32,000 bases of DNA, taken from positions 5,370,001 to 5,402,000 of the forward strand of contig NC_010296.1 in assembly GCF_000010625.1 (NCBI RefSeq), read 5' to 3'. The position numbers were made by a program, and so were the translations under genes. The notes beneath the pieces were generated by a model, which searched no databases, had not been told where the DNA came from, and saw only the letters and a list, made by a program, of their open reading frames with translations. This document shows, piece after piece, positions 6,047 through 20,708 of this stretch. Numbering within the stretch: position 1 is the first letter of the stretch; each line of letters opens with the position of its first letter. Source of the stretch: Microcystis aeruginosa NIES-843. GTDB taxonomy: Bacteria; Cyanobacteriota; Cyanobacteriia; Cyanobacteriales; Microcystaceae.

Positions 6047-7294
6047 CTGGACTGTTTCAGCTAAAATAGGGCAATAGCTCGAACAAGCAGAGGACATCAA
6101 TCATGGGAAGAGGTCGGCGAGATAAAGTCAATCTAACAGGGGAACAAAGAGAAAACCTCGAACAAATCAGTCGTAATGGCTATGCACCAGCTAAAAAAAT
6201 TCTCCACGCTCGGATTTTGCTGATGTGTGACGAGGGAGAACAGGCGAAAAGGAAATGGACAGATGAAGAAATAGGCGAAGCTTTAGAAGTTCATAGAAAT
6301 ACAGTGGGACGTATTCGTCAAAGATTTCTTCAAAAAGGCGAAAAACCAGCATTAGAACGGAAATCGAGAAAAACTCCCCCCACTCCGGCAAAAGTTGATG
6401 GAGCCGCCGCCGCCCAAATCATTGCCCTGTGCTGTTCGGAGCCACCATCTGGCCGAGCCGAGTGGACAATCCGACTATTAACCTCGGAACTCAAACAAAG
6501 ACAAATTATCACCGAGATTTCCAGTCCAACGGTGTGGCGTACTCTAAAAAAAACCAATTACGCCCTTGGAAAACCCAAAGATACTGTATTCCGGAACAGG
6601 ATTTAGCCCGATTTGTTGCCCAGATGGAAGTTGTCCTTGACCTGTATGGCACTCAGCCATCGGAAGAAGAACCGTTAATCGCGATGGATGAAGCATCAAA
6701 GCAACTACTTGGAGAAGTTTACCCTCCGATACCCATGCAACCTGGACAAGATAAAAAAGAAGACTATCACTATAGTCGTGAAGGGGTTCAAGCCTTGTTC
6801 ATGTTTTTTGACCCCCATCGAGGATGGAGACGGGTGAGTAACCGAGATAGTCGAACCCGAATAGATTGGGCAGAAGAAATTCGTCAATTATTGGATGTGG
6901 ACTATCCAAAGGCTCGAAAAGTCAAGCTCGTCTGTGATAATCTCAACACTCATAACATAGCCTCGCTTTATGAAGCATTTCCAGCACCCGTTGCTCATCG
7001 TTTAGCTAGAAGACTGGAAATTTATTACACACCTCGTAATGGTAGCTGGTTAAATGTAGCCGAAACTGAACTAAGCGTCTTATCGAGGCAATGTTTAGAT
7101 AGAAGGATTTCTAGCAAGGAAGAACTGAAAAGGGAGATAGAAACCTGGCAAAAAGAACGTAATCAGACTGCATCTACAGTAATATGGACGTTTACGACCA
7201 GCGATGCTAGGGTCAAGCTGAAACATCTTTATCCTGTGTTTGAGGAGGAGGAATCGGGAGAATCTATTGCACCAAATTAGCTGAAACAGTCCAC
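6047..7294 (+). mobile_element. IS630-family insertion sequence, copy type 2 (1248 bp)
   Basis: About 19-bp TIRs (CTGGACTGTTTCAGCTAA / TTAGCTGAAACAGTCCAC). Flanking TA at 6045-6046 and 7295-7296. The transposase is unrelated in sequence to copy type 1. Confidence 0.9.
6103..7280 (+). CDS. IS630-family transposase encoded in two frames (orfA 6103-6553, then -1 shift, orfB to 7280)
   Basis: orfA holds the HTH part and orfB the DDE part (VCDNLNTH, YTPRNGSWLNVAETELS). The A8 run at 6546-6553 joins ...TLKK to NQLRPWKTQRYCIP, recreating the family-typical LKKNxLxPW...CIP motif. Confidence 0.85.
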
Positions 7295-7311: not shown

Positions 7312-10300
7312 TTAAACTAATACAAGTATATTAGATGCGGTAAGAGTGGGTTTGGAACTGAGAGTTGCAATTTGAATGGCTGCTAGTGTACCTGTCCCGT
7401 CCCCATCAAAGAATAGTCCTCCAGTGATTGTATTATAAATAAAGCGATTGCTGGCATTTAATGCAGTTGTTCCTAACACGAATTGAGCGGCTGTAATCGC
7501 CACTCCTGCGGCTAAACCACCGCCAAAACCCGCAGCAGAGACAGTAATTTTATCCCCCTGACTGGAGAGAAAATCGGTAATTGTGTCAATCCCTTGATTG
7601 GGGTTTTTGAAGGTGAAGCGATCGCCACCTGCACCCCCTGTTATGGTATCATTACCAGTACCACCAATCAAGGTATCATTTCCCGCACTTCCTGTAAGGG
7701 TATTTTTACCACTATTACCAGTGATAATGTTATTTAATGTGTTACCTGTCCCATTAATATTTGCGGTTCCCGTTAACGTGAGGTTTTCTAGGTTATTTCC
7801 CAGGGTATAAGTAACTGATGATTGAACAGTATCTGTCCCTTGGTTGGCATTTTCCGTAATGGTATCGGTAGTAGTATCAACTTGATAAGTATCATTCCCT
7901 AAACCACCGATGAGGGTATCAATTCCTGTTGCACCATTAAGAATATTGTTACCACTATTACCGGTGATAATGTTATTTAATGTGTTACCTGTCCCGTTAA
8001 TATTTGCGGTTCCCGTTAACGTGAGGTTTTCTAGGTTATTTCCCAGGGTATAAGTAACTGATGATTGAACAGTATCTGTCCCTTGGTTGGCATTTTCCGT
8101 AATGGTATCGGTAGTAGTATCAACTTGATAAGTATCATTCCCTAAACCACCGATGAGGGTATCAATTCCTGTTGCACCATTAAGAATATTGTTACCACTA
8201 TTACCGGTGATAATGTTATTTAATGTGTTACCTGTCCCGTTAATATTTGCGGTTCCCGTTAACGTGAGGTTTTCTAGGTTATTTCCCAGGGTATAAGTAA
8301 CTGATGATTGAACAGTATCTGTCCCTTGGTTGGCATTTTCCGTAATGGTATCGGTAGTAGTATCAACTTGATAAGTATCATTCCCTAAACCACCGATGAG
8401 GGTATCAATTCCTGTTGCACCATTAAGAATATTGTTACCACTATTACCGGTGATAATGTTATTTAATGTGTTACCTGTCCCGTTAATATTTGCGGTTCCC
8501 GTTAACGTGAGGTTTTCTAGGTTATTTCCCAGGGTATAAGTAACTGATGATTGAACAGTATCTGTCCCTTGGTTGGCATTTTCCGTAATGGTATCGGTAG
8601 TAGTATCAACTTGATAAGTATCATTCCCTAAACCACCGATGAGGGTATCAATTCCTGTACCTCCATTAAGGATATTGTTACCACTATTACCGGTGATAAT
8701 GTTATTAGCAGCGTTACCTGTCCCATTAATATTTGTAGTCCCAGTTAGGGTCAGATTTTCCACATTAGCGGGTAGGGTAGTGGTGACATTAGCGGTTAAG
8801 GTGTCGCTGATGGTGACAATTCCCTTGTTATTGGTAAGAGTTGCATTGATGGGATTACTGAGGTTAATGGCAAAAGTTTCGTTTGCCTCATTGAGGTTAT
8901 CATTAAGGATGGGAATGGTAATAGTAGCAGTGGAAGTATTAGGTGCAATGGTGATAGTTCCGGTTTTGCTAGTGTAATCTACATTAGCGGTAGCGTTAAT
9001 GGGTGCAGTGGTATAGTTGAAGGTAATTGGTTGTGAATTGGGGTTATCAACTGTGACGGTGAGGATGGCATTATTATCTTTACCTTCCACTACGGTGATA
9101 TTATTGATGGAGAGTTTGGAGAAATCGTCATTAGTAATTGTCCCCGTCACTGCGGTGGCGGTCCCCACTGTATAACCAGTACCTGAAGCAAGAGTTAAAG
9201 CGACGGTTTCGTTATTTTCAACTGTAGTGTCAGCAGTGGGGTCAACTGTTACGGTAGCAGTGGATGAATTAGCAGCGAAGGTGACTGTATTGGTAGTCCC
9301 TGTACGAGTGTAGTCGGTATTGAGGGTAGCTGTCCCTCCGAGGGTGTAATTGACTGTTAAGGAATTAGTGGTTACTCCGCTACGAGTGAAGGTATAAACC
9401 AGATTTGTTGTCCCGTCTTCGTTAACACTTGCAGGGGAGACTGCTAAGCTAATAACGACAATTGTCCCTTGCTCTTCAAATGCACCAATATCTACTGTAC
9501 CACCAAAGATGCGATTGAATCCTGTTCCTCGTTGATCAAAGGGAATTTGTTCGGTCGTGTCACCATCACCATCAATATCTTCGCTATCAACAAGAATAAG
9601 GCTATTGTTTCCTGCATTAATCGCCGGACTTCCTGCTAAAAGTGCATGGGTCAGAGTTAAACCCCCATAGTTAGCTAAAGGAGCAAGTCCAGGATTAGAA
9701 TTAACAATATCAGTTCCTGTGCCAATCGTTCCTTTTGCACCAGTTAAATCACCGATAAGGTTGTAGTTATTGCCATTAAATATCGCACCAGATAACCCAG
9801 AAGAAAGTAAATCGAAACCATTAGTTGTATTATCTATATTTCCAGCAACAATTGTGTTTTTAAGAAAAAAGGTTGTACCAAGACTATAAATGCCGCCTCC
9901 ACCGCGTCGTCCAACAAATTGAGTGTCAACGACAGTATTATTGGTAATTGTGCTATTAATCAAATTAAATGTGTCACCAGAAGAATATATGCCACCTCCA
10001 GCATAACTTGCATTATTGCCACTAACGGTTGTATTGATCAAAGCCATTGAAGTACCGTTGTTCGTTATGCCTCCACCATTTCCCGCACTATTACCACTAA
10101 CAGTAGTATTGATCAGAGTCAGCGATCCAGCTACACTTGATATGCCACCTCCATAAACGCCTCCTTGATTATTATTAATTGTCGAGTTGATTGCAATTAG
10201 TGTTCCGCCTGAATTGTCAACGCCTCCGCCTTCCTGAAAACTACTACCACTAGCTATATTATTACTAACCACGCTACCCTGACGGAGATAGACAAAACCA

Positions 10301-11268
10301 CGATTCTGAATACCACCACCATTGCTAGAAGAACCAAGTGCCTTATTTCCACTTACAGTTGTGTTGTATAAGTCAAGAACACCTGTCGCATTAACACTAA
10401 TACCTGCGCCGGAAGAAGATATAATTCCCCCGGTTACTACGACATTCTGTAAGCTTAATGCACCTCCACTGAGAACATGAAAAACCCGATCAGAATTTAA
10501 TAATCCTGACGCATCAATAGTAGCTTTTTGTCCATTAAATGCTCCAATATAAAGCACATTATTACGAGACTTAATATCTAAGTCTCCCTTTTTTCCCTCA
10601 TTTTCATTAACGCCATTACTCGTTAGAGTATAGGTTAAGCCTCCTGTTAAATGAATTTCATATTCAGTATTCGGGTTAGCATTAGCAATTAAGATCGCAT
10701 CCCGCAAAGATAATCCATTATCAGCATTGCCATCATTTTGATCGGCGGTCGTATTAACGGTTAAAATAGTTGGTGCAGATTTTTCTACAGGAACATCATT
10801 TCCTGTGATTGTAATATTGGCAAAGTCATTTTCAGTTGTAATTCTTGCTACTTCTTGCGTTGTTAAATCTACTCCACGAACTAATGCTGCGAAATATTCT
10901 CCCTCATCTCCCGCGCTATCCACCTGATTAATTTGAGCATCCACATAATGCCCAATTTCTTCTAAAATTACATTAATTATCGTTGCTGACGAGGCCGTAT
11001 TCAAAAAAGATGCTGATAGATAAATCTTATTCTTACTGCTGGAATATGCACCATTCGCAGTCCCCAAAACCTCATCACTGAGTACCTCAATTGGGGGAAG
11101 TTGACTAAAATTTCGACTTTGCCACTGTTGTCGTAATTGCGTCGCCTTAACCACATCATAACTTGTCCCAAAAGCGGTTTCTAAATTCACCCAAAAGCCA
11201 TCAGATTGAGCGAAATTGAACAAAACATCGTCAACAGCAGGAAGAATCGGCAACAGGGTAGAAGTCAT
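7312..11268 (-). CDS. giant secreted RTX-type protein: N-terminal conserved leader domain, parallel beta-helix, Calx-beta-like domains, five 81-aa Ca-binding repeat modules, T1SS-type C-terminus
   Basis: 1318 aa. It has a CSLREA-like LSLRDAILIANANP followed by many xNTTVSGN/GGGI beta-helix turns. Calx-beta-like segments: TATVTVDPTADTTVENNETVALTL, TATITIPILNDNLNEANETFAINL. GGxGxD nonapeptides: GGLGNDTY, GGTGNDTITGGAGGDRFTF. There is no N-terminal signal peptide. Confidence 0.85.
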   Translation of the reverse strand: MTSTLLPILPAVDDVLFNFAQSDGFWVNLETAFGTSYDVVKATQLRQQWQSRNFSQLPPIEVLSDEVLGTANGAYSSSKNKIYLSASFLNTASSATIINVILEEIGHYVDAQINQVDSAGDEGEYFAALVRGVDLTTQEVARITTENDFANITITGNDVPVEKSAPTILTVNTTADQNDGNADNGLSLRDAILIANANPNTEYEIHLTGGLTYTLTSNGVNENEGKKGDLDIKSRNNVLYIGAFNGQKATIDASGLLNSDRVFHVLSGGALSLQNVVVTGGIISSSGAGISVNATGVLDLYNTTVSGNKALGSSSNGGGIQNRGFVYLRQGSVVSNNIASGSSFQEGGGVDNSGGTLIAINSTINNNQGGVYGGGISSVAGSLTLINTTVSGNSAGNGGGITNNGTSMALINTTVSGNNASYAGGGIYSSGDTFNLINSTITNNTVVDTQFVGRRGGGGIYSLGTTFFLKNTIVAGNIDNTTNGFDLLSSGLSGAIFNGNNYNLIGDLTGAKGTIGTGTDIVNSNPGLAPLANYGGLTLTHALLAGSPAINAGNNSLILVDSEDIDGDGDTTEQIPFDQRGTGFNRIFGGTVDIGAFEEQGTIVVISLAVSPASVNEDGTTNLVYTFTRSGVTTNSLTVNYTLGGTATLNTDYTRTGTTNTVTFAANSSTATVTVDPTADTTVENNETVALTLASGTGYTVGTATAVTGTITNDDFSKLSINNITVVEGKDNNAILTVTVDNPNSQPITFNYTTAPINATANVDYTSKTGTITIAPNTSTATITIPILNDNLNEANETFAINLSNPINATLTNNKGIVTISDTLTANVTTTLPANVENLTLTGTTNINGTGNAANNIITGNSGNNILNGGTGIDTLIGGLGNDTYQVDTTTDTITENANQGTDTVQSSVTYTLGNNLENLTLTGTANINGTGNTLNNIITGNSGNNILNGATGIDTLIGGLGNDTYQVDTTTDTITENANQGTDTVQSSVTYTLGNNLENLTLTGTANINGTGNTLNNIITGNSGNNILNGATGIDTLIGGLGNDTYQVDTTTDTITENANQGTDTVQSSVTYTLGNNLENLTLTGTANINGTGNTLNNIITGNSGNNILNGATGIDTLIGGLGNDTYQVDTTTDTITENANQGTDTVQSSVTYTLGNNLENLTLTGTANINGTGNTLNNIITGNSGKNTLTGSAGNDTLIGGTGNDTITGGAGGDRFTFKNPNQGIDTITDFLSSQGDKITVSAAGFGGGLAAGVAITAAQFVLGTTALNASNRFIYNTITGGLFFDGDGTGTLAAIQIATLSSKPTLTASNILVLV
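7716..8770 (-). repeat. 243-bp (81-codon) tandem repeat inside the giant gene: about 4 near-perfect copies plus diverged edge copies
   Basis: The GTAACTGATGATTGAACAG... unit starts at 7811, 8054, 8297 and 8540 (period exactly 243). The inner copies are identical by eye. Confidence 0.9.
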
Positions 11269-11298
11269 GACGTTAACTGCAACAGTTTATTGCTAACA

Positions 11299-11328
11299 AT
11301 TTTAGCCTAACAAGTGCAAATTTTTCAA
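11299..11328 (-). promoter_or_regulatory. sigma70-like promoter of the giant gene (TTGAAA - 18 nt - TAAAAT)
   Basis: On the minus strand, -35 is at 11328-11323 and -10 at 11304-11299, about 30 nt upstream of the ATG at 11268. The same architecture is conserved in four other copies. Confidence 0.45.
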
Positions 11329-11360
11329 GGGTGCTGTAACAGAAATTAATATTGATTACA

Positions 11361-11393
11361 AGAAAACGGGTTTCTTTAAGAAACCCGTTTTCT
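11361..11393 (-). terminator. 33-nt perfect hairpin (AGAAAACGGGTTTCTT T AAGAAACCCGTTTTCT), followed by an extra copy of the right arm (11394-11409)
   Basis: The 16-bp arms are exactly complementary. It lies immediately 3' of the Rpn-like A1 stop codon, and the U-rich 3' arm fits an intrinsic terminator. Confidence 0.55.
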
Positions 11394-11407
11394 AAGAAAC
11401 CCGTTTT

Positions 11408-12367
11408 CTAGATATTGATTTTTGCCAAAGACTGCTTAAATTCTGCGAGAGAATTAGCGGTAGCTGCTAATTTTAGTAGCTCTTCTAAGATAGTAGGGTT
11501 AGTCATTTTGCCGATTATCTCTTCAATTTCTGAAGAAATCTGTCCAAACCGCACAGTTAAAACTGTTTTTATGTCATCACGGCTTTTTTCTAGCACCCCA
11601 ATTTCTTTACCGCGTTCGATTCCTCGTAACTCCATATTACTCATTAAAGGCATGGTTTTTTCCTCCTCAAATTGTTTAATTTTACTCTCTAAGCTTGACT
11701 GCAATTCAGGGGATAAAGTCATCATATTGTCGATGATTTCAAACAGTTTAATTATCTGTTCCCTCTCGAACTCCTTTTCATATAATCCCCTGATTAACTT
11801 CCACTTCCACTGTTCCCGTTGTGGCAGCTTCCCAGTAGTCGCTTTTGTTTTCAGGTGTGCCATGACTATCATAGCAAAAGGATTGCTACTTGCTTCTAGT
11901 TCTGTCCATCTTTCCTCATAGTCCAGTAATTTAACCGTTGGGAATTTGAGGCTGACTTCACAACCGGCGATAGTATAATTATAGGAATCTGGTCGCCAAT
12001 TTACTCGTTCATCTCCTAATATAGCGAGACTGATAACCGGTTTCTGATACAAATCAAAGGCCCGATAGTTATAAATATACATCCTCTGAGGAAAATTTTC
12101 TTCGTATTGACTTTGAATTTCAATATGAATCAAAATCCAGACTTCTTCACCCCTGAGTAACCAAACTTTATAGAGTTTGTCAGCGAAACGTTTTTTGGTC
12201 TTTGCTGAAGCGGTAATCCGTTTGAGTTCTTTTTCTAGGGATTCGGGAATTTTTGTCCAATCAATTAATTGGTGAACTTCAGGAAAAAAGAAGTATAAAA
12301 ACGCTTCAAAATACTCGCTTAATGCTTCTTTCCAGGGTTCATCATAATTGGCGGTTGTTGGGTTCAT
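11408..12367 (-). CDS. YhgA/Rpn-like PD-(D/E)XK nuclease ('recombination-promoting nuclease/putative transposase') with DUF4351-type C-terminal tail, family A copy 1
   Basis: 319 aa. N-terminus YDEPWKEALSEYFEAF. Core: ADKLYKV...WILIHIEIQ...FPQRMYIYNY (a D...E.Q nuclease-like motif). Helical tail: TVLTVRFGQISSEIEEIIGKM...LAEFKQSL. It has one RGIERGKEIG hinge unit. Confidence 0.65.
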   Translation of the reverse strand: MNPTTANYDEPWKEALSEYFEAFLYFFFPEVHQLIDWTKIPESLEKELKRITASAKTKKRFADKLYKVWLLRGEEVWILIHIEIQSQYEENFPQRMYIYNYRAFDLYQKPVISLAILGDERVNWRPDSYNYTIAGCEVSLKFPTVKLLDYEERWTELEASSNPFAMIVMAHLKTKATTGKLPQREQWKWKLIRGLYEKEFEREQIIKLFEIIDNMMTLSPELQSSLESKIKQFEEEKTMPLMSNMELRGIERGKEIGVLEKSRDDIKTVLTVRFGQISSEIEEIIGKMTNPTILEELLKLAATANSLAEFKQSLAKINI

Positions 12368-12711
12368 TTGAGTTGTTTGCTTACTCGTAGGCTGTGAAGC
12401 GCGATAGCGTAACGCACCGATTTAATAATAGAGGTGGTGGTGGTAATCTGGGGATTTTGTGGTAAAAAAGCGGATATTTGTTCGATTCCGTCTTGATTGG
12501 GAGAGAGAATAACCGTGGCGACTTCTGGAATTACTCCAGCTTGGAGACTTTGATAATCGCTAACACCAGCATCGAGGAAAACTACGGTAGCGGTTAAACG
12601 CTGATTTCTCACACTATCCACCCGATTAGCTTGACTCAAGCCATCAGATTGAGCAAAATTGAACAAAACATCGTCAACAGCAGGAAAGCTCGGCAACAGG
12701 GTAGAAGTCAT
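12364..12711 (-). pseudogene. 5' fragment of a DUF4347-domain giant-protein gene (leader + truncated domain), reading into the Rpn-like A1 start
   Basis: MTSTLLPSFPAVDDVLFNFAQSDG matches the giant-gene start. It is followed by TATVVFLDAGVSDYQSLQAGVIPEVATVILSPNQDGIEQISAFL...QITT, which looks like a DUF4347 N-terminal half. The rest of such a gene is absent. Its stop overlaps the A1 ATG (ATGA). Confidence 0.7.
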
Positions 12712-12740
12712 GACGTTAACTGCAAAGGATTAATGCGACT

Positions 12741-12770
12741 ATTTTATGCAAACAATCGCCAATTTTTCAA
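12741..12770 (-). promoter_or_regulatory. sigma70-like promoter copy (TTGAAA - 18 nt - TAAAAT) in front of the leader fragment
   Basis: Same hexamers and spacing as at 11299-11328. Confidence 0.4.
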
Positions 12771-12799
12771 GGGGGATATAACAAAAATTAACATTATAC

Positions 12800-12832
12800 A
12801 GAAAACGGGTTTCTTTAAGAAACCCGTTTTCT
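12800..12832 (-). terminator. 33-nt perfect hairpin plus duplicated right arm (unit boundary)
   Basis: Identical to the hairpin at 11361-11393 and directly 3' of the A2 stop. Confidence 0.55.
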
Positions 12833-12846
12833 AAGAAACCCGTTTT

Positions 12847-13878
12847 CTAGATATTGATTTTAGCCAAAGACTGCTTAAATTCTGCGAGAGAATTAGCGGT
12901 AGCTGCTAATTTAACAATCCCTTGTAATGTAGATAGTACCGAAACTTTATTCAGGTATTGTTCCACATCTAAAGGAACTTCACCTAAGCGAGCTTGCAAA
13001 ACTGTTTTGACAAAATCACGAGCATTTTCTAACGCTCCGATTTCCTTGCCTATTTCTTTACCGCGTTCTATCCCTCGTAACTCCCCAATTTCCTTGCCAA
13101 TTTCCTTACCGATTTCCTTACCGCGTTCTATTCCTCGTAACTCCATATTACTCATTAAAGGCATCGTTCTTTCCTCCTCAAATTGTTTGATTTTACTCTC
13201 TAAACTTGACTGCAATTCAGGGGATAAAGTCATCATATTGTCGATGATTTCAAACAGTTTAATTATCTGTTCTCTCTCGAACTCCTTTTCATATAATCCC
13301 CTGATTAACTTCCACTTCCACTGTTCCCGTTGTGGCAGCTTCCCAGTAGTTGCTTTTGTTTTCAGGTGTGCCATGACTATTATAGCAAAGGGATTGCTAC
13401 TTGCTTCTAGTTCTGACCATCTTTCCTCATAGTCCAGTAATTTAACCGTTGGGAATTTGAGGCTGACTTCACAACCAGCGATAGTATAATTATAGGAATC
13501 TGGTCGCCAATTTACTCGTTCATCTCCTAATATAGCGAGACTGATAACTGGTTTCTGATACAAATCAAAGGCCCGATAGTTATAAATATACATCCTCTGA
13601 GGGAAATTTTCTTCGTATTGACTTTGAATTTCAATATGAATCAAAATCCAGACTTCTTCACCCCTGAGTAACCAAACTTTATAGAGTTTGTCAGCGAAAC
13701 GTTTTTTTGTCTTTGCTGAAGCGGTAATCCGTTTAAGTTCTTTTTCTAGGGATTCGGGAATTTTTGTCCAATCAATTAGTTGGTGAACTTCAGGAAAGAA
13801 GAAGCATAAAAACGCTTCAAAATACTCGCTTAATGCTTCTTTCCAGGGTTCATCATAATTGGCGGTTGTTGGGTTCAT
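12847..13878 (-). CDS. YhgA/Rpn-like nuclease with DUF4351-type tail, family A copy 2 (variant C-terminal cassette)
   Basis: 343 aa. It is near-identical to A1 and A3 except for hinge repeat number and a replaced ~39-codon block (FVKTVLQARLGEVPLDVEQYLNKVSVLSTLQGIV). Confidence 0.65.
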   Translation of the reverse strand: MNPTTANYDEPWKEALSEYFEAFLCFFFPEVHQLIDWTKIPESLEKELKRITASAKTKKRFADKLYKVWLLRGEEVWILIHIEIQSQYEENFPQRMYIYNYRAFDLYQKPVISLAILGDERVNWRPDSYNYTIAGCEVSLKFPTVKLLDYEERWSELEASSNPFAIIVMAHLKTKATTGKLPQREQWKWKLIRGLYEKEFEREQIIKLFEIIDNMMTLSPELQSSLESKIKQFEEERTMPLMSNMELRGIERGKEIGKEIGKEIGELRGIERGKEIGKEIGALENARDFVKTVLQARLGEVPLDVEQYLNKVSVLSTLQGIVKLAATANSLAEFKQSLAKINI

Positions 13879-14222
13879 TTGAGTTGTTTGCTTACTCGTA
13901 GGCTGTGAAGCGCGATAGCGTAACGCACCGATTTAATAATAGAGGTGGTGGTGGTAATCTGGGGATTTTGTGGTAAAAAAGCGGATATTTGTTCGATTCC
14001 GTCTTGATTGGGAGAGAGAATAACCGTGGCGACTTCTGGAATTACTCCAGCTTGGAGACTTTGATAATCGCTAACACCAGCATCGAGGAAAACTACGGTA
14101 GCGGTTAAACGCTGATTTCTCACACTATCCACCCGATTAGCTTGACTCAAGCCATCAGATTGAGCAAAATTGAACAAAACATCGTCAACAGCAGGAAAGC
14201 TCGGCAACAGGGTAGAAGTCAT
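13875..14222 (-). pseudogene. 5' fragment of a DUF4347-domain giant-protein gene (second copy)
   Basis: Protein identical to the 12364-12711 fragment, with the same ATGA overlap with the A2 start. Confidence 0.7.
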
Positions 14223-14251
14223 GACGTTAACTGCAAAGGATTAATGCGACT

Positions 14252-14281
14252 ATTTTATGCAAACAATCGCCAATTTTTCAA
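14252..14281 (-). promoter_or_regulatory. sigma70-like promoter copy (TTGAAA - 18 nt - TAAAAT)
   Basis: Same hexamers and spacing as at 11299-11328. Confidence 0.4.
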
Positions 14282-14310
14282 GGGGGATATAACAAAAATT
14301 AACATTATAC

Positions 14311-14343
14311 AGAAAACGGGTTTCTTTAAGAAACCCGTTTTCT
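14311..14343 (-). terminator. 33-nt perfect hairpin plus duplicated right arm (unit boundary)
   Basis: Identical to the hairpin at 11361-11393 and directly 3' of the A3 stop. Confidence 0.55.
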
Positions 14344-14357
14344 AAGAAACCCGTTTT

Positions 14358-15401
14358 CTAGATATTGATTTTAGCCAAAGACTGCTTAAATTCTGCGAGA
14401 GAATTAGCGGTAGCTGCTAATTTTAGTAGCTCTTCTAAGATAGTAGGGTTAGTCATTTTGCCGATTATCTCTTCAATTTCTGAAGAAATCTGTCCAAACC
14501 GCACAGTTAAAACTGTTTTTATGGCATCGCGGCTTTTTTGTAACGCGCCAATTTCTTTACCAATTTCCTTACCTATTTCTTTACCGCGTTCTATCCCTCG
14601 TAACTCCCCAATTTCCTTGCCAATTTCCTTACCGATTTCCTTACCGCGTTCTATTCCTCGTAACTCCATATTACTCATTAAAGGCATCGTTCTTTCCTCC
14701 TCAAATTGTTTGATTTTACTCTCTAAACTTGACTGCAATTCAGGGGATAAAGTCATCATATTGTCGATGATTTCAAACAGTTTAATTATCTGTTCCCTCT
14801 CGAACTCCTTTTCATATAATCCCCTGATTAACTTCCACTTCCACTGTTCCCGTTGTGGCAGCTTCCCAGTAGTCGCTTTTGTTTTCAGGTGTGCCATGAC
14901 TATTATAGCAAAGGGATTGCTACTTGCTTCTAGTTCTGACCAGCTTTCCTCATAGTCCAGTAATTTAACCGTTGGGAATTTGAGGCTGACTTCACAACCG
15001 GCGATAGTATAATTATAGGAATCTGGTCGCCAATTTACTCGTTCATCTCCTAATATAGCGAGACTGATAACCGGTTTCTGATACAAATCAAAGGCCCGAT
15101 AGTTATAAATATACATCCTCTGAGGAAAATTTTCTTCGTATTGACTTTGAATTTCAATATGAATCAAAATCCAGACTTCTTCACCCCTGAGTAACCAAAC
15201 TTTATAGAGTTTGTCAGCGAAACGTTTTTTGGTCTTTGCTGAAGCGGTAATCCGTTTGAGTTCTTTTTCTAGGGATTCGGGAATTTTTGTCCAATCAATT
15301 AATTGGTGAACTTCAGGAAAAAAGAAGTATAAAAACGCTTCAAAATACTCGCTTAATGCTTCTTTCCAGGGTTCATCATAATTGGCGGTTGTTGGGTTCA
15401 T
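14358..15401 (-). CDS. YhgA/Rpn-like nuclease with DUF4351-type tail, family A copy 3
   Basis: 347 aa. It has the longest hinge, (GKEI)3-GELRGIER-(GKEI)3, and an A1-type C-terminal tail. Confidence 0.65.
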   Translation of the reverse strand: MNPTTANYDEPWKEALSEYFEAFLYFFFPEVHQLIDWTKIPESLEKELKRITASAKTKKRFADKLYKVWLLRGEEVWILIHIEIQSQYEENFPQRMYIYNYRAFDLYQKPVISLAILGDERVNWRPDSYNYTIAGCEVSLKFPTVKLLDYEESWSELEASSNPFAIIVMAHLKTKATTGKLPQREQWKWKLIRGLYEKEFEREQIIKLFEIIDNMMTLSPELQSSLESKIKQFEEERTMPLMSNMELRGIERGKEIGKEIGKEIGELRGIERGKEIGKEIGKEIGALQKSRDAIKTVLTVRFGQISSEIEEIIGKMTNPTILEELLKLAATANSLAEFKQSLAKINI

Positions 15402-15455
15402 TTGAGTTGTTTGCTTACTCGTAGGCTGTGAAACGCGATAGCGTAACGCACCGAT

Positions 15456-15746
15456 TTAATAATAGAGGTGAATGGTGGTAATCTGGGGATTTTGTGGTAA
15501 AAAAGCGGATATTTGTTCGATTCCGTCTTGATTGGGAGTGAGAATAACGGTGGCGACTTCTGGAATTACTCCAGCTTGGAGACTTTGATAATCGCTAACA
15601 CCAGCATCGAGGAAAACTACGGTAGCGGTTAAACGCTGATTTCTCACACTATCCACCCGATTAGCTTGACTCAAGCCATCAGATTGAGCAAAATTGAACA
15701 AAACATCGTCAACAGCAGGAAAGCTCGGCAACAGGATAGAAGTCAT
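15456..15746 (-). pseudogene. 5' fragment of a DUF4347-domain giant-protein gene (third copy, ends ...QITTIHLYY-stop)
   Basis: Same sequence as the other two fragments, but it has 1 nt more in the GGT run. It therefore keeps the family-like ...TTIHL frame and stops 55 nt before the A3 ATG. Confidence 0.7.
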
Positions 15747-15775
15747 GACGTTAACTGCAAAGGATTAATGCGACT

Positions 15776-15805
15776 ATTTTATGCAAACAATCGCCAATTT
15801 TTCAA
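15776..15805 (-). promoter_or_regulatory. sigma70-like promoter copy (TTGAAA - 18 nt - TAAAAT)
   Basis: Same hexamers and spacing as at 11299-11328. Confidence 0.4.
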
Positions 15806-15834
15806 GGGGGATATAACAAAAATTAACATTATAC

Positions 15835-15867
15835 AGAAAACGGGTTTCTTTAAGAAACCCGTTTTCT
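15835..15867 (-). terminator. 33-nt perfect hairpin plus duplicated right arm (unit boundary)
   Basis: Identical to the hairpin at 11361-11393 and directly 3' of the A4 remnant stop. Confidence 0.55.
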
Positions 15868-15881
15868 AAGAAACCCGTTTT

Positions 15882-16670
15882 CTAGATATTGATTTTTGCC
15901 AAAGACTGCTTAAATTCTGCGAGAGAATTAGCGGTAGCTGCTAATTTTAGTAGCTCTTCTAAGATAGTAGGGTTAGTCATTTTGCCGATTATCTCTTCAA
16001 TTTCTGAAGAAATCTGTCCAAACCGCACAGTTAAAACTGTTTTTATGGCATCGCGGCTTTTTTGTAACGCGCCAATTTCTTTACCAATTTCCTTACCTAT
16101 TTCTTTACCGCGTTCTATTCCTCGTAACTCCCCAATTTCCTCACCAATTTTCCTTCCTCGTAACTCCATATTACTTACTAAAGGCATGGTTCTTTCCTCC
16201 TCAAATTGTTTGATTTTACTCTCTAAGCTTGACTGCAATTCAGGGGATAAAGTCATCATATTGTCGATGATTTCAAACAGTTTAATTATCTGTTCCCTCT
16301 CGAACTCCTTTTCATATAATCCCCTGATTAACTTCCACTTCCACTGTTCCCGTTGTGGCAGCTTCCCAGTAGTCGCTTTTGTTTTCAGGTGTGCCATGAC
16401 TATTATAGCAAAAGGATTGCTGCTTGCTTCCAATTAGTCACTGATAACTGATAACTGATAACTGATAACTGAATAGAGTTTGTCAGCGAAACGTTTTTTT
16501 GTCTTTGCTGAAGCGGTAATCCGTTTAAGTTCTTTTTCTAGGGATTCGGGAATTTTTGTCCAATCAATTAGTTGGTGAACTTCAGGAAAGAAGAAGCATA
16601 AAAACGCTTCAAAATACTCGCTTAATGCTTCTTTCCAGGGTTCATCATAATTGGCGGTTTGTGATGTCAT
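15882..16670 (-). pseudogene. family A Rpn-like gene copy 4 with an internal ~280-bp deletion replaced by heptamer repeats
   Basis: The N-terminal 66 codons (16473-16670) and the C-terminal ~180 codons (15882-16430) align to A2 and A3. The nuclease core (LIHIEIQ...) is missing. The filler is CAATTAGTCA(CTGATAA)4CTGAA. Confidence 0.8.
16441..16473. repeat. (CTGATAA)4 heptamer microsatellite at the A4 deletion junction
   Basis: Four exact CTGATAA units plus CTGAA. A related array lies at 18979-19005. Confidence 0.9.
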
Positions 16671-16775
16671 GTTTTAGGTTGTAACTCTATTGTATAATCT
16701 CATCCGAGATGTCAGTACAAGGGGGATGCTTCCCGCGTTAACCCTTCTCTTTCAATCAAAACTCACTTGAAGTCC

Positions 16776-16808
16776 AGAAAACGGGTTTCTTAAAGAAACC
16801 CGTTTTCT
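16776..16808 (-). terminator. 33-nt hairpin variant (AGAAAACGGGTTTCTT A AAGAAACCCGTTTTCT) between family B copy 1 and A4
   Basis: Same arms as the unit-boundary hairpin. It lies about 55 nt 3' of the B1 stop. Confidence 0.5.
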
Positions 16809-16865
16809 CGATAATGGTGTTGAGACTGAAGCTTATCTGTTAATTCCCCCCTGAAAATGACAATT

Positions 16866-17861
16866 TTACAGGGTAATTAAAGTATTTAACCAATTGATTA
16901 AATCTTCAACCGTAGAAAAATCGAATAAAGCTTCTCCTAATACTTCGACATCATCAATACTTAACTGCATAATTTTAGTTTCCAATGAAGGATTAATCTC
17001 CCCTAACTTGCGTTTAATTTGACGAAGAATCAATGTCTTTTCGCGTTCGATACCTTGTTCGATACCTTGTTCAATACCTTGTTCAATACCTTGTTCAATA
17101 CCCCGTTCGATACCTTGTTCAATACCTAGTTCAATACCTTGACGCATCCAACTGGTAGTAATTTGCATAACTCCCTCCTGTACGGGTTGACTAAATGTGC
17201 TAATCTCTTGTTGAAATTGTATCTCTTCGACCGGATTTAGATTGAGATAAGTATCAATAAATCCAGAAATTAATTCCATTTTCGCAGGATTTAACCTTAA
17301 AGTAATTAACAAGCGCAGACATTCGGCCTTAACTTTTGCTCGCTCTTTCTCGGCAATGTTCATCTTCGCCATCAAAGCTGAAGCAACCGGATTCGGCTGA
17401 TTGAGAAAATCTCGCCAATTTAATCGATTTAACTGCACTACTTGATAGTTAAATTCTAAGACTTTTAAATCAGGAAAATCGACTACATATTGACTAATCG
17501 CTTCTCTTTTTGGCTTTGAATAAGAAAAAATTACAATCGGATAAATCGGTAAGACAAATTTCTCATGAAAGCGAGCAAAATAAGTAAACATTCGCCGGTT
17601 AAACCACTTTCGGGAACTTTCCTGCGCCTCTACATGAATCAGAAAAAAAGATTCTTTTCCTCGAAACTTAACCTGTGCGACTAAATCACTTTCATACCTT
17701 TCTCCTTCCGTGACATCTGTAAATACTTCTTTGTCTAAAAAAGTAATCGATTCCCTATCTAAATAATCTATCAATTGAGGGAAAAACAACTCGATAAATT
17801 CGACAAAAAAGGTGGAGATTAACTCCTTAAATAAGCGATAATGGTCAATATTATTAGTCAT
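16866..17861 (-). CDS. YhgA/Rpn-like PD-(D/E)XK nuclease ('Rpn family recombination-promoting nuclease/putative transposase') with DUF4351 tail, family B copy 1
   Basis: 331 aa. N-terminus DHYRLFKELISTFFVEFIELFFPQ. Core: ESDLVAQV...FFLIHVEAQ...FNRRMFTYFARF. Also LNRLNWRDFLNQPNPVASALMAKM. The hinge is (GIEx)8. The tail LILRQIKRKLGEINPSLETKIMQLSIDDVEVLGEALFDFSTVEDLINWL is DUF4351-like. Confidence 0.75.
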   Translation of the reverse strand: MTNNIDHYRLFKELISTFFVEFIELFFPQLIDYLDRESITFLDKEVFTDVTEGERYESDLVAQVKFRGKESFFLIHVEAQESSRKWFNRRMFTYFARFHEKFVLPIYPIVIFSYSKPKREAISQYVVDFPDLKVLEFNYQVVQLNRLNWRDFLNQPNPVASALMAKMNIAEKERAKVKAECLRLLITLRLNPAKMELISGFIDTYLNLNPVEEIQFQQEISTFSQPVQEGVMQITTSWMRQGIELGIEQGIERGIEQGIEQGIEQGIEQGIEREKTLILRQIKRKLGEINPSLETKIMQLSIDDVEVLGEALFDFSTVEDLINWLNTLITL

Positions 17862-17960
17862 GTAATGTCATCTTAACTAATCTGAGCGATGAATGACTAC
17901 TCTTCTCTGTTGTATTCTGAAAAGTCGGTTTTGGCAACGGATTGTTATGACCTCACCCCC

Positions 17961-18065
17961 TTAACCTACAGCGATTGCCAAATTCGCCCAAAAACCATCA
18001 GATTGAGCAAAATCGAACAAACTATCGTAAACAGCAGGAAAAATCGGCAAAAGAGAAGAAGTCAT
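17961..18065 (-). pseudogene. 34-codon stub of a giant-protein gene (MTSSLLPIFPAVYDSLFDFAQSDGFWANLAIAVG-stop) abutting the family B unit
   Basis: It is homologous at DNA and protein level to the first 34 codons of the 1318-aa gene (…FAQSDGFWVNLETAFG…). Homology ends at about 17969, where the family B unit begins. Confidence 0.7.
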
Positions 18066-18095
18066 GACTATAACTGCAAAAGTTTATTGCTAACA

Positions 18096-18125
18096 GTTTT
18101 AGCCCAACAATCCCCAATTTTTCAA
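18096..18125 (-). promoter_or_regulatory. sigma70-like promoter copy (TTGAAA - 18 nt - TAAAAC) in front of the leader stub
   Basis: Same position and spacing relative to the ATG as in the other four copies. The flanking sequence is closest to the giant-gene copy. Confidence 0.4.
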
Positions 18126-18240
18126 GGGTGCTATCACAAAAATTAACATTTATTACAAGAAAACGGGTTTCTCGTAATGTTCACTACCCGATGAAATTGC
18201 TCTGGTAAAATGTCCATAATAGACAAGAGAGAATTTACTT

Positions 18241-18453
18241 ATGAGTGTAGCCGACGAAATTTACAAAATCGTGAAATCAATGCCTGAAGATCGAGCGAAT
18301 AAAATTTTGGATTTTGCAAAGTTTTTGCAAGCTAAACCAGAGTTAGAAGATAAGCCATTAGATTTCCGCGATGCGGCGGGATTGGGGCAAGAAATGTGGC
18401 AATCAATTGATGTAGATGCTTATATTCAGCAGGAGCGATCATCATGGGAATAG
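18241..18453 (+). CDS. type II antitoxin (VapB-position small protein, DUF2281-like N-terminus)
   Basis: 70 aa. It overlaps the downstream PIN gene by 10 nt. N-terminal pattern: IYKIVKSMPEDRANKILDFAKFLQ. Confidence 0.6.
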   Translation: MSVADEIYKIVKSMPEDRANKILDFAKFLQAKPELEDKPLDFRDAAGLGQEMWQSIDVDAYIQQERSSWE

Positions 18454-18878
18454 TTTTACAACCGGGAAATATTGTATTTTTAGATACGGCTCCTTTTATT
18501 GACTTTTTCGAGCAACATCCCATCTTTTTTCCTTATATGGAAAAGTTATTTTATGATGTCTCCATTTATCAGGTTAAGGTTATCACTTCGATGATCACTT
18601 TTATCGAAATTGTTACCCATCCAGCAAGGATAGGTAATCAGGAGTTGGTAGAACAATACCGGACATATTTCACCCGTTCGAGCCAAATTACTCTGTTACC
18701 AATCGATTTATCTATTGCTAAGGAGGCGATCGCTCTTCCTACCCAATACACTCTCAAAACACCCGATGCGATTCAACTGGGAACAGCGATCGCATATTCA
18801 GCAACCTACATTATCACTAATGATAGGCAATGGAAACAGTTAACTCATCAAAATGTATTGCTAGTAGATGAAATGTAG
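18444..18878 (+). CDS. vapC: PIN-domain ribonuclease toxin (VapC family)
   Basis: 144 aa. The conserved acidic positions are visible (FLDTAPF, FIEIV, TPDAIQLGTA, IITNDRQW). It is translationally coupled to the upstream small ORF. Confidence 0.75.
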   Translation: MGIVLQPGNIVFLDTAPFIDFFEQHPIFFPYMEKLFYDVSIYQVKVITSMITFIEIVTHPARIGNQELVEQYRTYFTRSSQITLLPIDLSIAKEAIALPTQYTLKTPDAIQLGTAIAYSATYIITNDRQWKQLTHQNVLLVDEM

Positions 18879-18920
18879 CGAATCAGTTCTGGAAATGAAT
18901 GATTTTACCTCTCCCCCTAA

Positions 18921-18972
18921 CCCCATCTCCTCGTAGGAGAGGGGGAATTGCGACTCCTGCGAGGAGATGGGG
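18921..18972. repeat. 13-bp inverted repeat CCCCATCTCCTCG / CGAGGAGATGGGG with two internal mini-palindromes
   Basis: The arms at 18921-18933 and 18960-18972 are exact complements. Internal CTCCTCGTAGGAG and CTCCTGCGAGGAG are each self-complementary. It lies 3' of vapC. Confidence 0.6.
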
Positions 18973-19028
18973 AAATACACTGATAACTGTTAACTGTTAA
19001 CTGAAATTCATACCTGAAAATGACAATT

Positions 19029-20036
19029 TTACAGGGTAATTAAAGTATTTAACCAATTGATTAAATCTTCAACCGTAGAAAAATCGAATAAAGCTTCTCC
19101 TAATACTTCGACATCATCAATACTTAACTGCATAATTTTAGTTTCCAATGAAGGATTAATCTCCCCTAACTTGCGTTTAATTTGACGAAGAATCAATGTC
19201 TTTTCCCGTTCAATACCTTGTTCGATACCTTGTTCAATACCTTGTTCAATACCTTGTTCAATACCTTGTTCAATACCCCGTTCGATACCTTGTTCAATAC
19301 CTAGTTCAATACCTTGACGCATCCAACTGGTAGTAATTTGCATAACTCCCTCCTGTACGGGTTGACTAAATGTGCTAATCTCTTGTTGAAATTGTATCTC
19401 TTCGACCGGATTTAGATTGAGATAAGTATCAATAAATCCAGAAATTAATTGCATTCTCGCCGCATCTAACCTTAAAGTAATTAACAAGCGCAGACATTCG
19501 GCCTTAACTTTTGCTCGCTCTTTCTCGGCAATGTTCATCTTCGCCATCAAAGCTGAAGCAACCGGATTCGGCTGATTGAGAAAATCTCGCCAATTTAATC
19601 GATTTAACTGCACTACTTGATAGTTAAATTCTAAGACTTTTAAATCAGGAAAATCGACTACATATTGACTAATTGCTTCTCTTTTTGGCTTTGAATAAGA
19701 AAAAATTACAATCGGATAAATCGGTAAGACAAATTTCTCATGAAAGCGAGCAAAATAAGTAAACATTCGCCGGTTAAACCACTTTCGGGAACTTTCCTGC
19801 GCCTCTACATGAATCAGAAAAAAAGATTCTTTTCCTCGAAACTTAACCTGTGCGACTAAATCACTTTCATACCTTTCTCCTTCCGTGACATCGGTAAATA
19901 CTTCTTTGTCTAAAAAAGTAATCGAGTCCCTATCTAAATAATCTATCAATTGAGGGAAAAACAACTCGATAAATTCGACAAAAAAGGTGGAGATTAACTC
20001 CTTAAATAAGCGATCATGGTCAATATTATTAGTCAT
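19029..20036 (-). CDS. YhgA/Rpn-like nuclease with DUF4351 tail, family B copy 2
   Basis: 335 aa. It is near-identical to B1, differing by an extra GIEQ unit, a small patch (DAARMQ vs NPAKME) and two point changes. Confidence 0.75.
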   Translation of the reverse strand: MTNNIDHDRLFKELISTFFVEFIELFFPQLIDYLDRDSITFLDKEVFTDVTEGERYESDLVAQVKFRGKESFFLIHVEAQESSRKWFNRRMFTYFARFHEKFVLPIYPIVIFSYSKPKREAISQYVVDFPDLKVLEFNYQVVQLNRLNWRDFLNQPNPVASALMAKMNIAEKERAKVKAECLRLLITLRLDAARMQLISGFIDTYLNLNPVEEIQFQQEISTFSQPVQEGVMQITTSWMRQGIELGIEQGIERGIEQGIEQGIEQGIEQGIEQGIEREKTLILRQIKRKLGEINPSLETKIMQLSIDDVEVLGEALFDFSTVEDLINWLNTLITL

Positions 20037-20089
20037 GTAATGTCATCTTAACTAATCTGAGCGATGAATGACTACTCTTCTCTATTATA

Positions 20090-20293
20090 GGGTTTGCTGA
20101 AAAAGTTTCTCGTGGGGGCAGGGTGTGGGGTGTAGGGTGTAGGGTTTTACCCATTTTCAGGTGGTCAATTACCTAATTTTCAGGGAAAAAGTACCTGAAT
20201 TTTACCCCCGATCACTCCGATAGCCAGTACTTTTTGATTTCCCAAAAGTCTAAAAGTCTTACCCAACAAGGTTTTTAGATTTATTCAGCAAGC
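20090..20293. mobile_element. MITE (~204 bp) with a G-rich GGGGTGT/AGGGTGT heptamer tract
   Basis: Left end GGGTTTGCTGAA..., right end ...TTCAGCAAGC. A 9-10 bp direct duplication (C)TCTATTATA lies at 20080-20089 and 20293-20302. The uninterrupted equivalent site is present upstream of B1 (17901-17920). Confidence 0.8.
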
Positions 20294-20392
20294 TCTATTA
20301 TATTCTGAGAAGTCGGTTTTGGCAACGGATTGTTATGACCTTACCCCCTTAACTTACGAGGAGAGGGGGATGCTTCCCGCAAAAAACCCCAC

Positions 20393-20425
20393 AGAAAACG
20401 GGTTTCTTGAAGAAACCCGTTTTCT
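20393..20425 (-). terminator. 33-nt hairpin variant (AGAAAACGGGTTTCTT G AAGAAACCCGTTTTCT)
   Basis: Same arms as the unit-boundary hairpins. It lies upstream of the B2 unit. Confidence 0.45.
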
Positions 20426-20429
20426 CGAT

Positions 20430-20492
20430 CAGAAATTAATTACATTTTCGCTAGATTTAACCTTAAAGTGATTAACAAGCGCAGACATTCCG
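20430..20492 (-). pseudogene. ~63-bp remnant of a third family B Rpn-like gene
   Basis: CAGAAATTAATTACATTTTCGCTAGATTTAACCTTAAAGTGATTAACAAGCGCAGACATTC aligns to the internal B1 sequence 17264-17326 with a few mismatches. Confidence 0.7.
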
Positions 20493-20708
20493 CTAACCGA
20501 TCACAAAAAAAACTGGAGCGAGCGCTTTTCGCCACCCCAGTGCTGTCACGGAATTCAATTCTGTATCTAAATTAACACATTATTGGCAGCAAGCATAATT
20601 AAGGAAATTGGAAATTTTTCCGAAAGGGGTTTCCAAAGGCTGTAACCTTTACTGACAGGGGATTTCGAGCCTGATAAGGCTAAAGTTTTTGGAGTCTATC
20701 CTCGAAAA

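Follow-up and report, generated by a model that had tools for sequence, protein, structure and literature searches.

The question raised by this locus is how the same promoter and 24-codon leader came to be repeated five times on one strand in the cyanobacterium Microcystis aeruginosa NIES-843, in front of different coding bodies and among genes of the Rpn nuclease type. The window analyzed here is the whole stretch of 32,000 nucleotides (contig NC_010296.1, positions 5,370,001 to 5,402,000 of the forward strand), and the coordinates below are those of the window. The initial annotation of this DNA offered two explanations, a surface-protein variation system in which a shared expression leader is joined to exchangeable bodies, or debris of repeated recombination among paralogous giant genes beside Rpn genes. 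The second was essentially right, and the corresponding loci differ in four strains. We put the probability at roughly two in three (about 0.68) that the repeated module is the 5′ end of a giant-gene family, copied as an rpn array grew, rather than a device for surface-protein switching; the repeat would be five-fold because an rpn array carrying broken gene starts expanded in front of one intact RTX exoprotein gene.

Open reading frame (ORF) calls and alignment place five copies of the module, ~180-210 bp each, on the minus strand, with leader-encoding ORFs starting at ATGs 11268, 12711, 14222, 15746 and 18065. The five ORFs, already named in the initial annotation, all encode the N-terminus MTS(T/I/S)LLP(I/S)(L/F)PAV(D/Y)D(V/S)LF(N/D)FAQSDG, and a repeat finder assigned all five copies to one 208-nt family with 62-100% identity to the reference copy; a degenerate leader pattern matched four near-identical copies, against 0.43 chance matches expected. 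Each module comprises a 13-nt motif, a promoter-like site, a 5′ untranslated region and codons 1-24. In a multiple alignment, homology of the five copies begins at GAAACCCGTTTTC, ~107-110 nt 5′ of the ATG, and stops after GATGG(C/T)TT at window position 11195/6, which agrees with the abrupt end reported near 11195. Nucleotide identity within the module is ~85-100%, synonymous sites are conserved as well, and the downstream sequence switches sharply at codon 24. The earlier statement that an identical -35/-10 pair with an 18-nt spacer precedes every copy was largely accurate: TTGAAA-N18 occurs in all five, followed by TAAAAT in four but by TAAAAC at 18065. The alignment also separates two variants of the promoter part, one in the copies at 11268 and 18065 and the other in the three copies that precede DUF4347 sequence.

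Three bodies had been proposed to follow the leader, and two of them stand: the N-terminal domain of an RTX-type protein and, three times, DUF4347. The copies at 11268 and 18065 remain homologous through codon 32, after which the latter is cut by the 5′ flank of an rpnB gene, so what had been taken for a third body is a 34-codon stub of the RTX type. Each of the three DUF4347 copies breaks off after codon 94, and a frameshift affects two of them as well; the fragment in the first tandem unit (U1, Table 1) is in frame as far as that junction, and the one in the third (U3) is a frameshifted 115-aa ORF (12711-12364) whose stop codon overlaps the ATG of rpnA (ATGA).

Listing what follows the module in other genomes, as the initial annotation had proposed, showed only two continuations after Gly24 in ~190 copies from Microcystis genomes and metagenomes. 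An exact-match scan for the leader in one genome per species found 38 copies at 35 loci, all in Microcystis except two contigs binned as Nostocales, and all 38 continue FW.N (RTX type) or LSQ.N (DUF4347 type), as do all 47 modules that a BLAST search located in the window and at those loci. A search on a shorter core recovered 189 modules, 97 of RTX type, 88 of DUF type and four that start with F and have another residue at codon 26. In metagenomes, 0 matches were obtained when the leader was sought with any base but T opening codon 25; the positive control of that scan returned 114 copies at 109 loci (60 FW-type, 54 LSQ-type). With two continuations only, a key prediction of a cassette system fails. 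The two Nostocales-binned contigs, from a Dolichospermum (L011) and an Anabaena (L029) metagenome-assembled genome, have RTX-type genes whose leader matches the Microcystis 26-mer exactly and whose upstream sequence differs; they are either mis-binned Microcystis DNA or products of horizontal transfer.

Genes for giant secreted proteins or exoproteins form a family in Microcystis, and the module is the 5′ end that they share. The product of the intact window gene carries the GGxGxD repeats that mark an RTX exoprotein (PF00353, HemolysinCabind, 6.7e-26 over five stretches, the best at residues 1183-1217) and a Calx-beta match (Pfam, 7e-17). Among its RTX-type paralogs, the promoter and ~126 codons are 84-92% identical in nucleotides, homology to the window gene reaching ~10880-10898, and the bodies then diverge into RTX, FG-GAP/VCBS, beta-helix or Calx-beta repeats. 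The first ~165 residues have many Microcystis homologues, and Nostocales ones at ~50% identity that cover the whole N-terminus, where the equivalent of the leader reads L..NQL..FS.L.NFW..FDTAFGT; L16, F19 and F25 are invariant in an alignment of the window protein with 31 homologues, Nostocales included. An AlphaFold2 model of residues 1-167 built on that alignment (mean predicted local distance difference test score, pLDDT, 88) shows residues 8-21 as helix 1, with block-mean pLDDT >90, and residues 22-24 as a loop before helix 2, so that the codon-24 junction falls in this loop. Because of the Nostocales conservation and this model, the leader is best described as the predicted first helix of a conserved ~160-aa N-terminal domain. 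A fold search with the domain gave weak zincin-like matches (E >= 0.035, template-modelling scores 0.3-0.5; minimal zincins), with which a sub-threshold SprT-like Pfam match agrees; these are a hint of a zincin-like fold, not an assignment. A role of the leader as a Sec, Tat or double-glycine signal was rejected on reading its sequence, which is acidic and without a hydrophobic core, with residues -2, -4 and -7 that depart from the double-glycine leader consensus. Within the RTX gene, five tandem 243-bp (81-aa) repeats at 7646-8767 are 79-93% identical, and the gene at the equivalent position in M. ichthyoblabe is longer (at least 2115 aa), with many Calx-beta-like repeats. Pfam scans found no gene for an ABC transporter, a membrane-fusion protein or TolC, as expected for type I secretion, among the window ORFs scanned.

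The DUF4347 type is a chimera of this 5′ module and a DUF4347 gene. Copies in the window cover positions 1-49 or 1-52 of the 164 in the PF14252 profile and so fall well short of the complete domain; in another strain, an intact leader-DUF4347/LVIVD gene (L028, 1276 aa) matches positions 1-148. A whole-library HMMER search with the leader-DUF4347 protein as query found 10,752 DUF4347 homologues, and among the 150 matches listed the alignment mostly begins at query residue ~35-43, 3-40 residues after the N-terminus of the target. The closest full-length Microcystis relatives among the matches listed, 86-92% identical, start with MSRQTNLNQSVVFLD and are leaderless; one leaderless Microcystis paralog begins MSRQTNLNQS, and there are leaderless DUF4347 paralogs in which the domain is 92% identical. 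The homologue listings held no protein longer than ~1.75 times the query, and full-length relatives came from a representative search and from the loci themselves. Since DUF4347 proteins in general are without the leader, the codon-24 junction probably represents one old, fixed chimera. The initial annotation had set its proposal against the possibility that the leader is simply the conserved N-terminus of a paralog family; it is the N-terminus of a large family of this kind, with exactly one fixed breakpoint, at codon 24. At one locus of the leaderless form (L043 2640-3262), upstream of the gene, leader codons 22/23-30 survive as CTGATGGCTTGGTTCAAGTTAAG immediately behind the palindrome; the promoter and codons 1-22 have been lost between two TCTG microhomologies. 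Following this remnant, ~620 nt of unrelated sequence supplies the new start MSRQTNLNQS.

The rpn genes of the window fall into two families, rpnA and rpnB, whose homology extends from end to end (25% identity, E 4e-19). The catalytic-type motif, D63...E83-I-Q85 in rpnA and D59...E78-A-Q80 in rpnB, lies at positions that match the catalytic residues D63, E82 and Q84 of E. coli RpnA (Kingston et al., 2017; PMC5350276), and rpnB has in addition a DUF4351 domain (1e-20). All six copies contain an in-frame GAGGAGG or AGGAGG with an ATG 5-8 nt further on (11653, 13164, 14687, 16187, 17168 and 19343), from which C-terminal products of 81-109 aa are predicted. Four-residue repeats begin ~9-15 residues after this internal Met and vary in number between copies: KEIG occurs once, 3+2 or 3+3 times in three rpnA copies, and (Q/L/R)GIE eight times in rpnB1 and nine times in rpnB2. 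This layout is predicted to be that of an RpnL toxin nuclease, of the PD-(D/E)XK type, with an intragenic RpnS antitoxin, as described by Zhong et al. (2023). NCBIfam, PADLOC and PDB sequence searches with the rpn products yielded no useful match; one PADLOC match linked rpnB to a ‘putative invertase’ model (E 1e-6). Short arrays lie beside two of the genes, (CAGTTAT)x4 at 16471-16444 exactly at the deletion in the truncated rpnA copy and a similar CAGTTAA/CAGTTAT array at 18983-19003 just downstream of rpnB2.

Two composite units join pieces of the giant-gene 5′ ends to these rpn genes, and their sequences indicate that each had a single origin and has since been dispersed. In one, the module with 32 codons is followed by rpnB, and its junction, …GCAATCGCT|GTAGGTTAAGGGGG… (the right-hand part being rpnB 5′ flank), does not vary among seven genomic copies, which have at least four different upstream contexts. 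In the other, the module is followed by 94 codons of DUF4347 (DUF′) and rpnA; here the junction after CACCT, at codon 94 and 66 nt before the rpnA ATG, is identical in 51 copies, and the window holds three copies in tandem. Junctions are identical across species-level clusters. The module-DUF′-rpnA unit also lies 5′ of other giant genes (L016, L002 and L034). Rpn genes usually stand directly 5′ of giant genes on the same strand, and in 26 of the 37 long RTX-type genes with enough flank an rpn 3′ end lies <=250 nt upstream. Most truncated module-ORFs are followed next by an rpn start, and most truncated ORFs before rpn genes carry the module. As some tandem rpnA arrays contain no module at all (L033), homology between rpn genes suffices by itself for amplification.

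The orthologous loci of four strains contain 0, 2 or 3 DUF′-rpnA units, and the giant gene keeps its own intact module in the compared loci that have units upstream. In NIES-102 (L049), which is collinear with window positions 16430 to 2361 at 98.8% identity and has three units, rpnA is full-length where NIES-843 has the deleted copy. At the glycosyltransferase flank, a metagenome strain (L050/L051) matches the window at 98.4%; it has two units, no stub-rpnB, another toxin-antitoxin pair and another giant gene, with 67% identity in the N-domain. In M. ichthyoblabe (L008) the antitoxin-stub-rpnB flank is shared at 95% identity, and rpnB leads straight to a module and giant gene with no unit between. 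Mosaicism is also seen at a finer scale. All four combinations of promoter variant and body type occur (counts 53/26/18/61; Fisher p = 3e-8 for association), which indicates repeated exchange between the -10 region and codon 25. Among the tandem units, U2 equals U3 in columns 1-480, U1 equals U3 in 480-900 and U1 is nearly identical to U2 in 900-1260; a block of ~120 nt in the C-terminal (RpnS) part of the U2 rpnA (12920-13040) is only 57-60% identical to U1 and U3 between identical flanks and looks like a swapped C-terminal segment. The initial annotation's suggestion that the leader is a substrate for recombination thus holds, given the four promoter-body combinations and loci that vary in the number and kind of units.

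The only inverted repeats of a module-fragment-rpn unit are 13-16-nt arms of the motif, and these are not fixed ends. The motif GAAACCCGTTTTC occurs 90-135 nt 5′ of the ATG at 189 module copies, alone, as two or three direct repeats or inverted as a palindrome, with a spacing of 16-18 nt (e.g. L002, L012, L017, L075 and L123); it resembles either an operator-type site or a boundary at which recombination ends. The palindrome folds as RNA at -24.9 kcal/mol (z = -5.9). It was rejected as a canonical intrinsic terminator, as it escaped a terminator scanner and its stem is not followed by a T-run. The units were likewise rejected as insertion sequences or other elements bounded by terminal inverted repeats, since neither the number nor the orientation of the motif arms is constant and target duplications are absent; none were seen flanking the lone-arm junctions.

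The anatomy, fixed junctions, dispersal, strain polymorphism and mosaicism are observed, and a history of the following kind would account for them. One old recombination would have set the module before a DUF4347/LVIVD giant gene, with its junction at codon 24, and two single illegitimate joins would have made the composites, module plus 32 codons plus rpnB and module plus 94 DUF4347 codons plus 66 nt plus rpnA. As these are flanked by repeats (the rpn genes, the palindrome and the module itself), ordinary homologous recombination, whether by unequal crossing-over, loop-out and re-integration or gene conversion, could have dispersed the units and amplified them in tandem, leaving in the window a stub-rpnB composite, a damaged rpnA, three module-DUF′-rpnA units and then the intact module-RTX gene. 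The module promoter may also drive the downstream rpn genes; the 115-aa ORF, at its stop, overlaps the start of rpnA. In the window, the module of the RTX gene already departs from those of the DUF copies at the motif, and for that reason the last crossover there probably lay in rpnA or the palindrome; Campbell-type integration through a crossover inside the module was rejected for the window array on the same observation.

Several findings weigh against this history. Matches of the rpnA nuclease domain to PF04754 (E 4e-4 to 5e-3) fall short of the gathering score, and rpnA was matched by none of the NCBIfam or PADLOC models, so membership in the Rpn family rests on motifs, architecture and NCBI naming, which calls only some cluster members Rpn family. 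The palindrome or the 13-nt motif is the exact endpoint of many homology blocks, lone motif arms occur at 18171-18159, L012 and L016, and the L043 deletion runs from the motif to leader codon 22; such clustering of breakpoints hints at a more specific mechanism of breakage or recombination. Passive duplication alone also does not explain why rpn genes stand so systematically 5′ of giant genes. These two unexplained features, position and palindrome breakpoints, leave room for an active role of the nuclease.

Two less likely explanations give the nuclease such an active role. The composites could be semi-autonomous cassettes, in which a captured promoter expresses rpn and the array adaptively multiplies and diversifies a defence gene; the module and palindrome would be portable homology by which a 1.5-kb circle or a transformed fragment inserts harmlessly upstream of any giant gene, with integration stimulated by breaks that the Rpn nuclease would make in the palindrome or close to it. 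Composites do outnumber intact genes, as 48 of the 53 DUF-type ORFs in metagenomes are <300 aa and 51 DUF′/rpnA junctions are identical; the same units precede different giant genes, the target is always intact with its own module, the ATGA overlap joins the 115-aa ORF to rpnA, the RpnS region varies between units in repeat number and in one swapped segment, homology breakpoints cluster at the palindrome, and RpnL has been suggested, as a speculation, to initiate rpn duplications (Zhong et al., 2023; PMC10400941). We nevertheless consider this unlikely, because E. coli RpnA has little or no sequence specificity (PMC5350276), rpnA arrays amplify without a module and the last window crossover fell in rpnA or the palindrome, not in the module. 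It is rather less probable still that Rpn nucleases, through breaks at the palindrome or 13-nt motif bounding every module, cause units and giant-gene 5′ ends to be gained, lost and shuffled; if they did, the locus would amplify and diversify itself as a defence array, in physical and transcriptional linkage with giant surface-protein genes whose products may themselves be phage receptors.

Other explanations place the cause in the leader. Selection for a shared function, such as co-regulation or the targeting or retention of exoproteins, could keep the leader, the motif or both alike in place of gene conversion, and the DUF4347 gene would have acquired the module for that function. In keeping with this, the motif at the 189 modules is variable in number and orientation, as operator sites often are, the leader is conserved in the intact 1276-aa DUF4347/LVIVD protein, and L16 and F19 are invariant across the window protein and its 31 homologues; however, the conserved synonymous sites and sharp end of homology are what conversion tracts predict, the leader has no secretion-signal features and is modelled as an integral helix of a folded domain in the RTX type, and DUF4347 paralogs with a 92% identical domain do without it, so that we regard this as improbable, marginally more so than breakage by Rpn. 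A programmed variation system in the style of pilE/pilS or vlsE, with one expression leader joined to alternative surface-protein bodies, would fit the conserved module, the abrupt switch at codon 24, the diverse bodies of the family and the polymorphism of loci between strains, but is very improbable indeed: besides the two continuations and the empty codon-25 scan, each copy owns a promoter-like site, no promoterless giant-gene bodies occur among the window ORFs, the DUF copies are dead 5′ fragments cut at one fixed point with junctions shared across species-level clusters, and Pfam scans of the window ORFs found no invertase or site-specific recombinase. The surface-variation half of the initial annotation is therefore given up; the module is a substrate for homologous recombination and bears no sign of a programmed cassette system.

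Comparison with known systems points the same way. Cassette antigenic variation, as in Neisseria pilE/pilS and Borrelia vlsE, uses one expression site and silent promoterless cassettes. The Microcystis locus shares with it a conserved 5′ segment next to variable sequence, clustered homologous repeats and recombination between them, but has no silent promoterless cassettes, no single expression site and two fixed partners, and its repeats are 5′ fragments. A second comparison is with the orphan toxin/immunity modules behind rhs and cdiA genes, in which part of the conserved core is retained as homology for recombination; as there, fragments with a conserved piece of a giant gene pile up in tandem beside an intact gene and can recombine with it, whereas here the fragments are promoter-bearing 5′ ends that lie upstream with an unrelated rpn gene, not alternative functional tips, and recombination would alter the number of units rather than the protein. 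Concerted evolution of the 5′ ends of large RTX or adhesin genes would produce the 84-92% identity of promoter and ~126 codons and the shuffled promoter variants, but the DUF4347 type differs in sharing the first 24 codons only, with a sharp chimeric junction.

The closest parallel is with arrays of rpn genes (RpnL/RpnS, YhgA-like, PF04754; PMC5350276, PMC10400941), which are reported to show neither inverted repeats nor target duplications, to end at variable positions and to form through tandem direct duplication of genomic stretches (PMC10400941). The same holds here, where there are no terminal inverted repeats or target duplications, and the D..E-x-Q motif, the internal Shine-Dalgarno sequence with ATG and the variable four-residue repeats are likewise shared. 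The Microcystis arrays differ in that each duplicated unit includes, from a giant gene next to it, the promoter and a decapitated 5′ end, that they lie systematically before giant exoprotein genes across Microcystis, and that rpnA is sub-threshold for PF04754; their nuclease, toxic and defence functions are putative. The locus is thus a known kind of rpn array with an unreported twist, fixed composites with a giant-gene promoter and 5′ end that are widespread in Microcystis; no paper linking Microcystis with Rpn or DUF4347 was found in the literature searched. A tempting false lead is removed, as there is no antigenic-variation machinery at the locus, and rpn defence or toxin genes are seen to spread in a bloom-forming cyanobacterium as fixed composites that stack before giant genes without disrupting them. 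This provides a testable case for the question of how rpn genes duplicate or move without transposon ends (Zhong et al., 2023), and it accounts for a class of short ORFs that carry the labels ‘DUF4347 domain-containing’ and ‘hemolysin’ in the annotation of many Microcystis genomes.

Table 1. Features of the module and rpn region, in window coordinates
Feature	Position	Strand	Details
Module copy 5 and 34-codon RTX-type stub	17961..18172	-	ATG 18065; lone 13-nt motif 18171-18159; TAAAAC
rpnB 5′ flank cutting stub after codon 32	17862..17969	-	same flank 5′ of rpnB2, 20357-20293
rpnB1, 331 aa	16866..17861	-	D59..E78-x-Q80; eight (Q/L/R)GIE; Shine-Dalgarno sequence and ATG 17168; DUF4351
Palindrome 3′ of rpnB1	16777..16807		homology to M. 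ichthyoblabe ortholog switches here
rpnA copy, residues 69-156 (nuclease core) deleted	15882..16670	-	RpnS-like C-terminal ORF from ATG 16187 intact
Tandem unit U1, 1524 bp	14325..15848	-	module, DUF4347 fragment 15746-15456 (96 aa), rpnA 15401-14358 (347 aa)
Tandem unit U2, 1511 bp	12814..14324	-	module, DUF4347 fragment 14222-13875, rpnA 13878-12847 (343 aa)
Tandem unit U3, 1439 bp	11375..12813	-	module, DUF4347 fragment, rpnA 12367-11408 (319 aa)
Palindrome between rpnA stop codon and promoter	11362..11408		arms GAAAACGGGTTTC / GAAACCCGTTTTC
Further palindromes like 11362-11408	12801-12847, 14312-14358, 15836-15882		arms GAAAACGGGTTTC / GAAACCCGTTTTC
Module copy 1, 5′ of RTX gene	11197..11375	-	13-nt motif, TTGAAA-N18-TAAAAT, codons 1-24
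Intact giant RTX/Calx-beta gene, 1318 aa	7312..11268	-	leader, possible zincin-like N-domain, Calx-beta, 243-bp repeats, RTX
rpnB2, 335 aa	19029..20036	-	one more QGIE repeat than rpnB1; no module upstream
rpnB fragment and palindrome	20493-20430 (fragment), 20424-20394 (palindrome)	-	further upstream of rpnB2

Apart from the rpn genes, the mobile or toxin-antitoxin-type matches in Pfam scans of the window ORFs were to DDE transposases of the IS630 type and to a PIN toxin-antitoxin pair. An Rfam scan of 11100-20600 found nothing. An exact protein look-up retrieved records BAG05669-BAG05674 for window proteins and none for the 1318-aa RTX protein. Directly downstream of the RTX gene lie two IS630-family (DDE_3) copies (4842-5885 and 6103-7280), one intact and the other split into two ORFs, in the same arrangement as in NIES-102. 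Between the two rpnB copies, a DUF2281/PIN toxin-antitoxin pair occupies 18241-18878 on the plus strand; look-up of the PIN gene gave matches solely on contigs <=3 kb, and in another strain the position of the pair is taken by a UPF0175/DUF3368 pair (L050 7590-8329, L051 934-1673).

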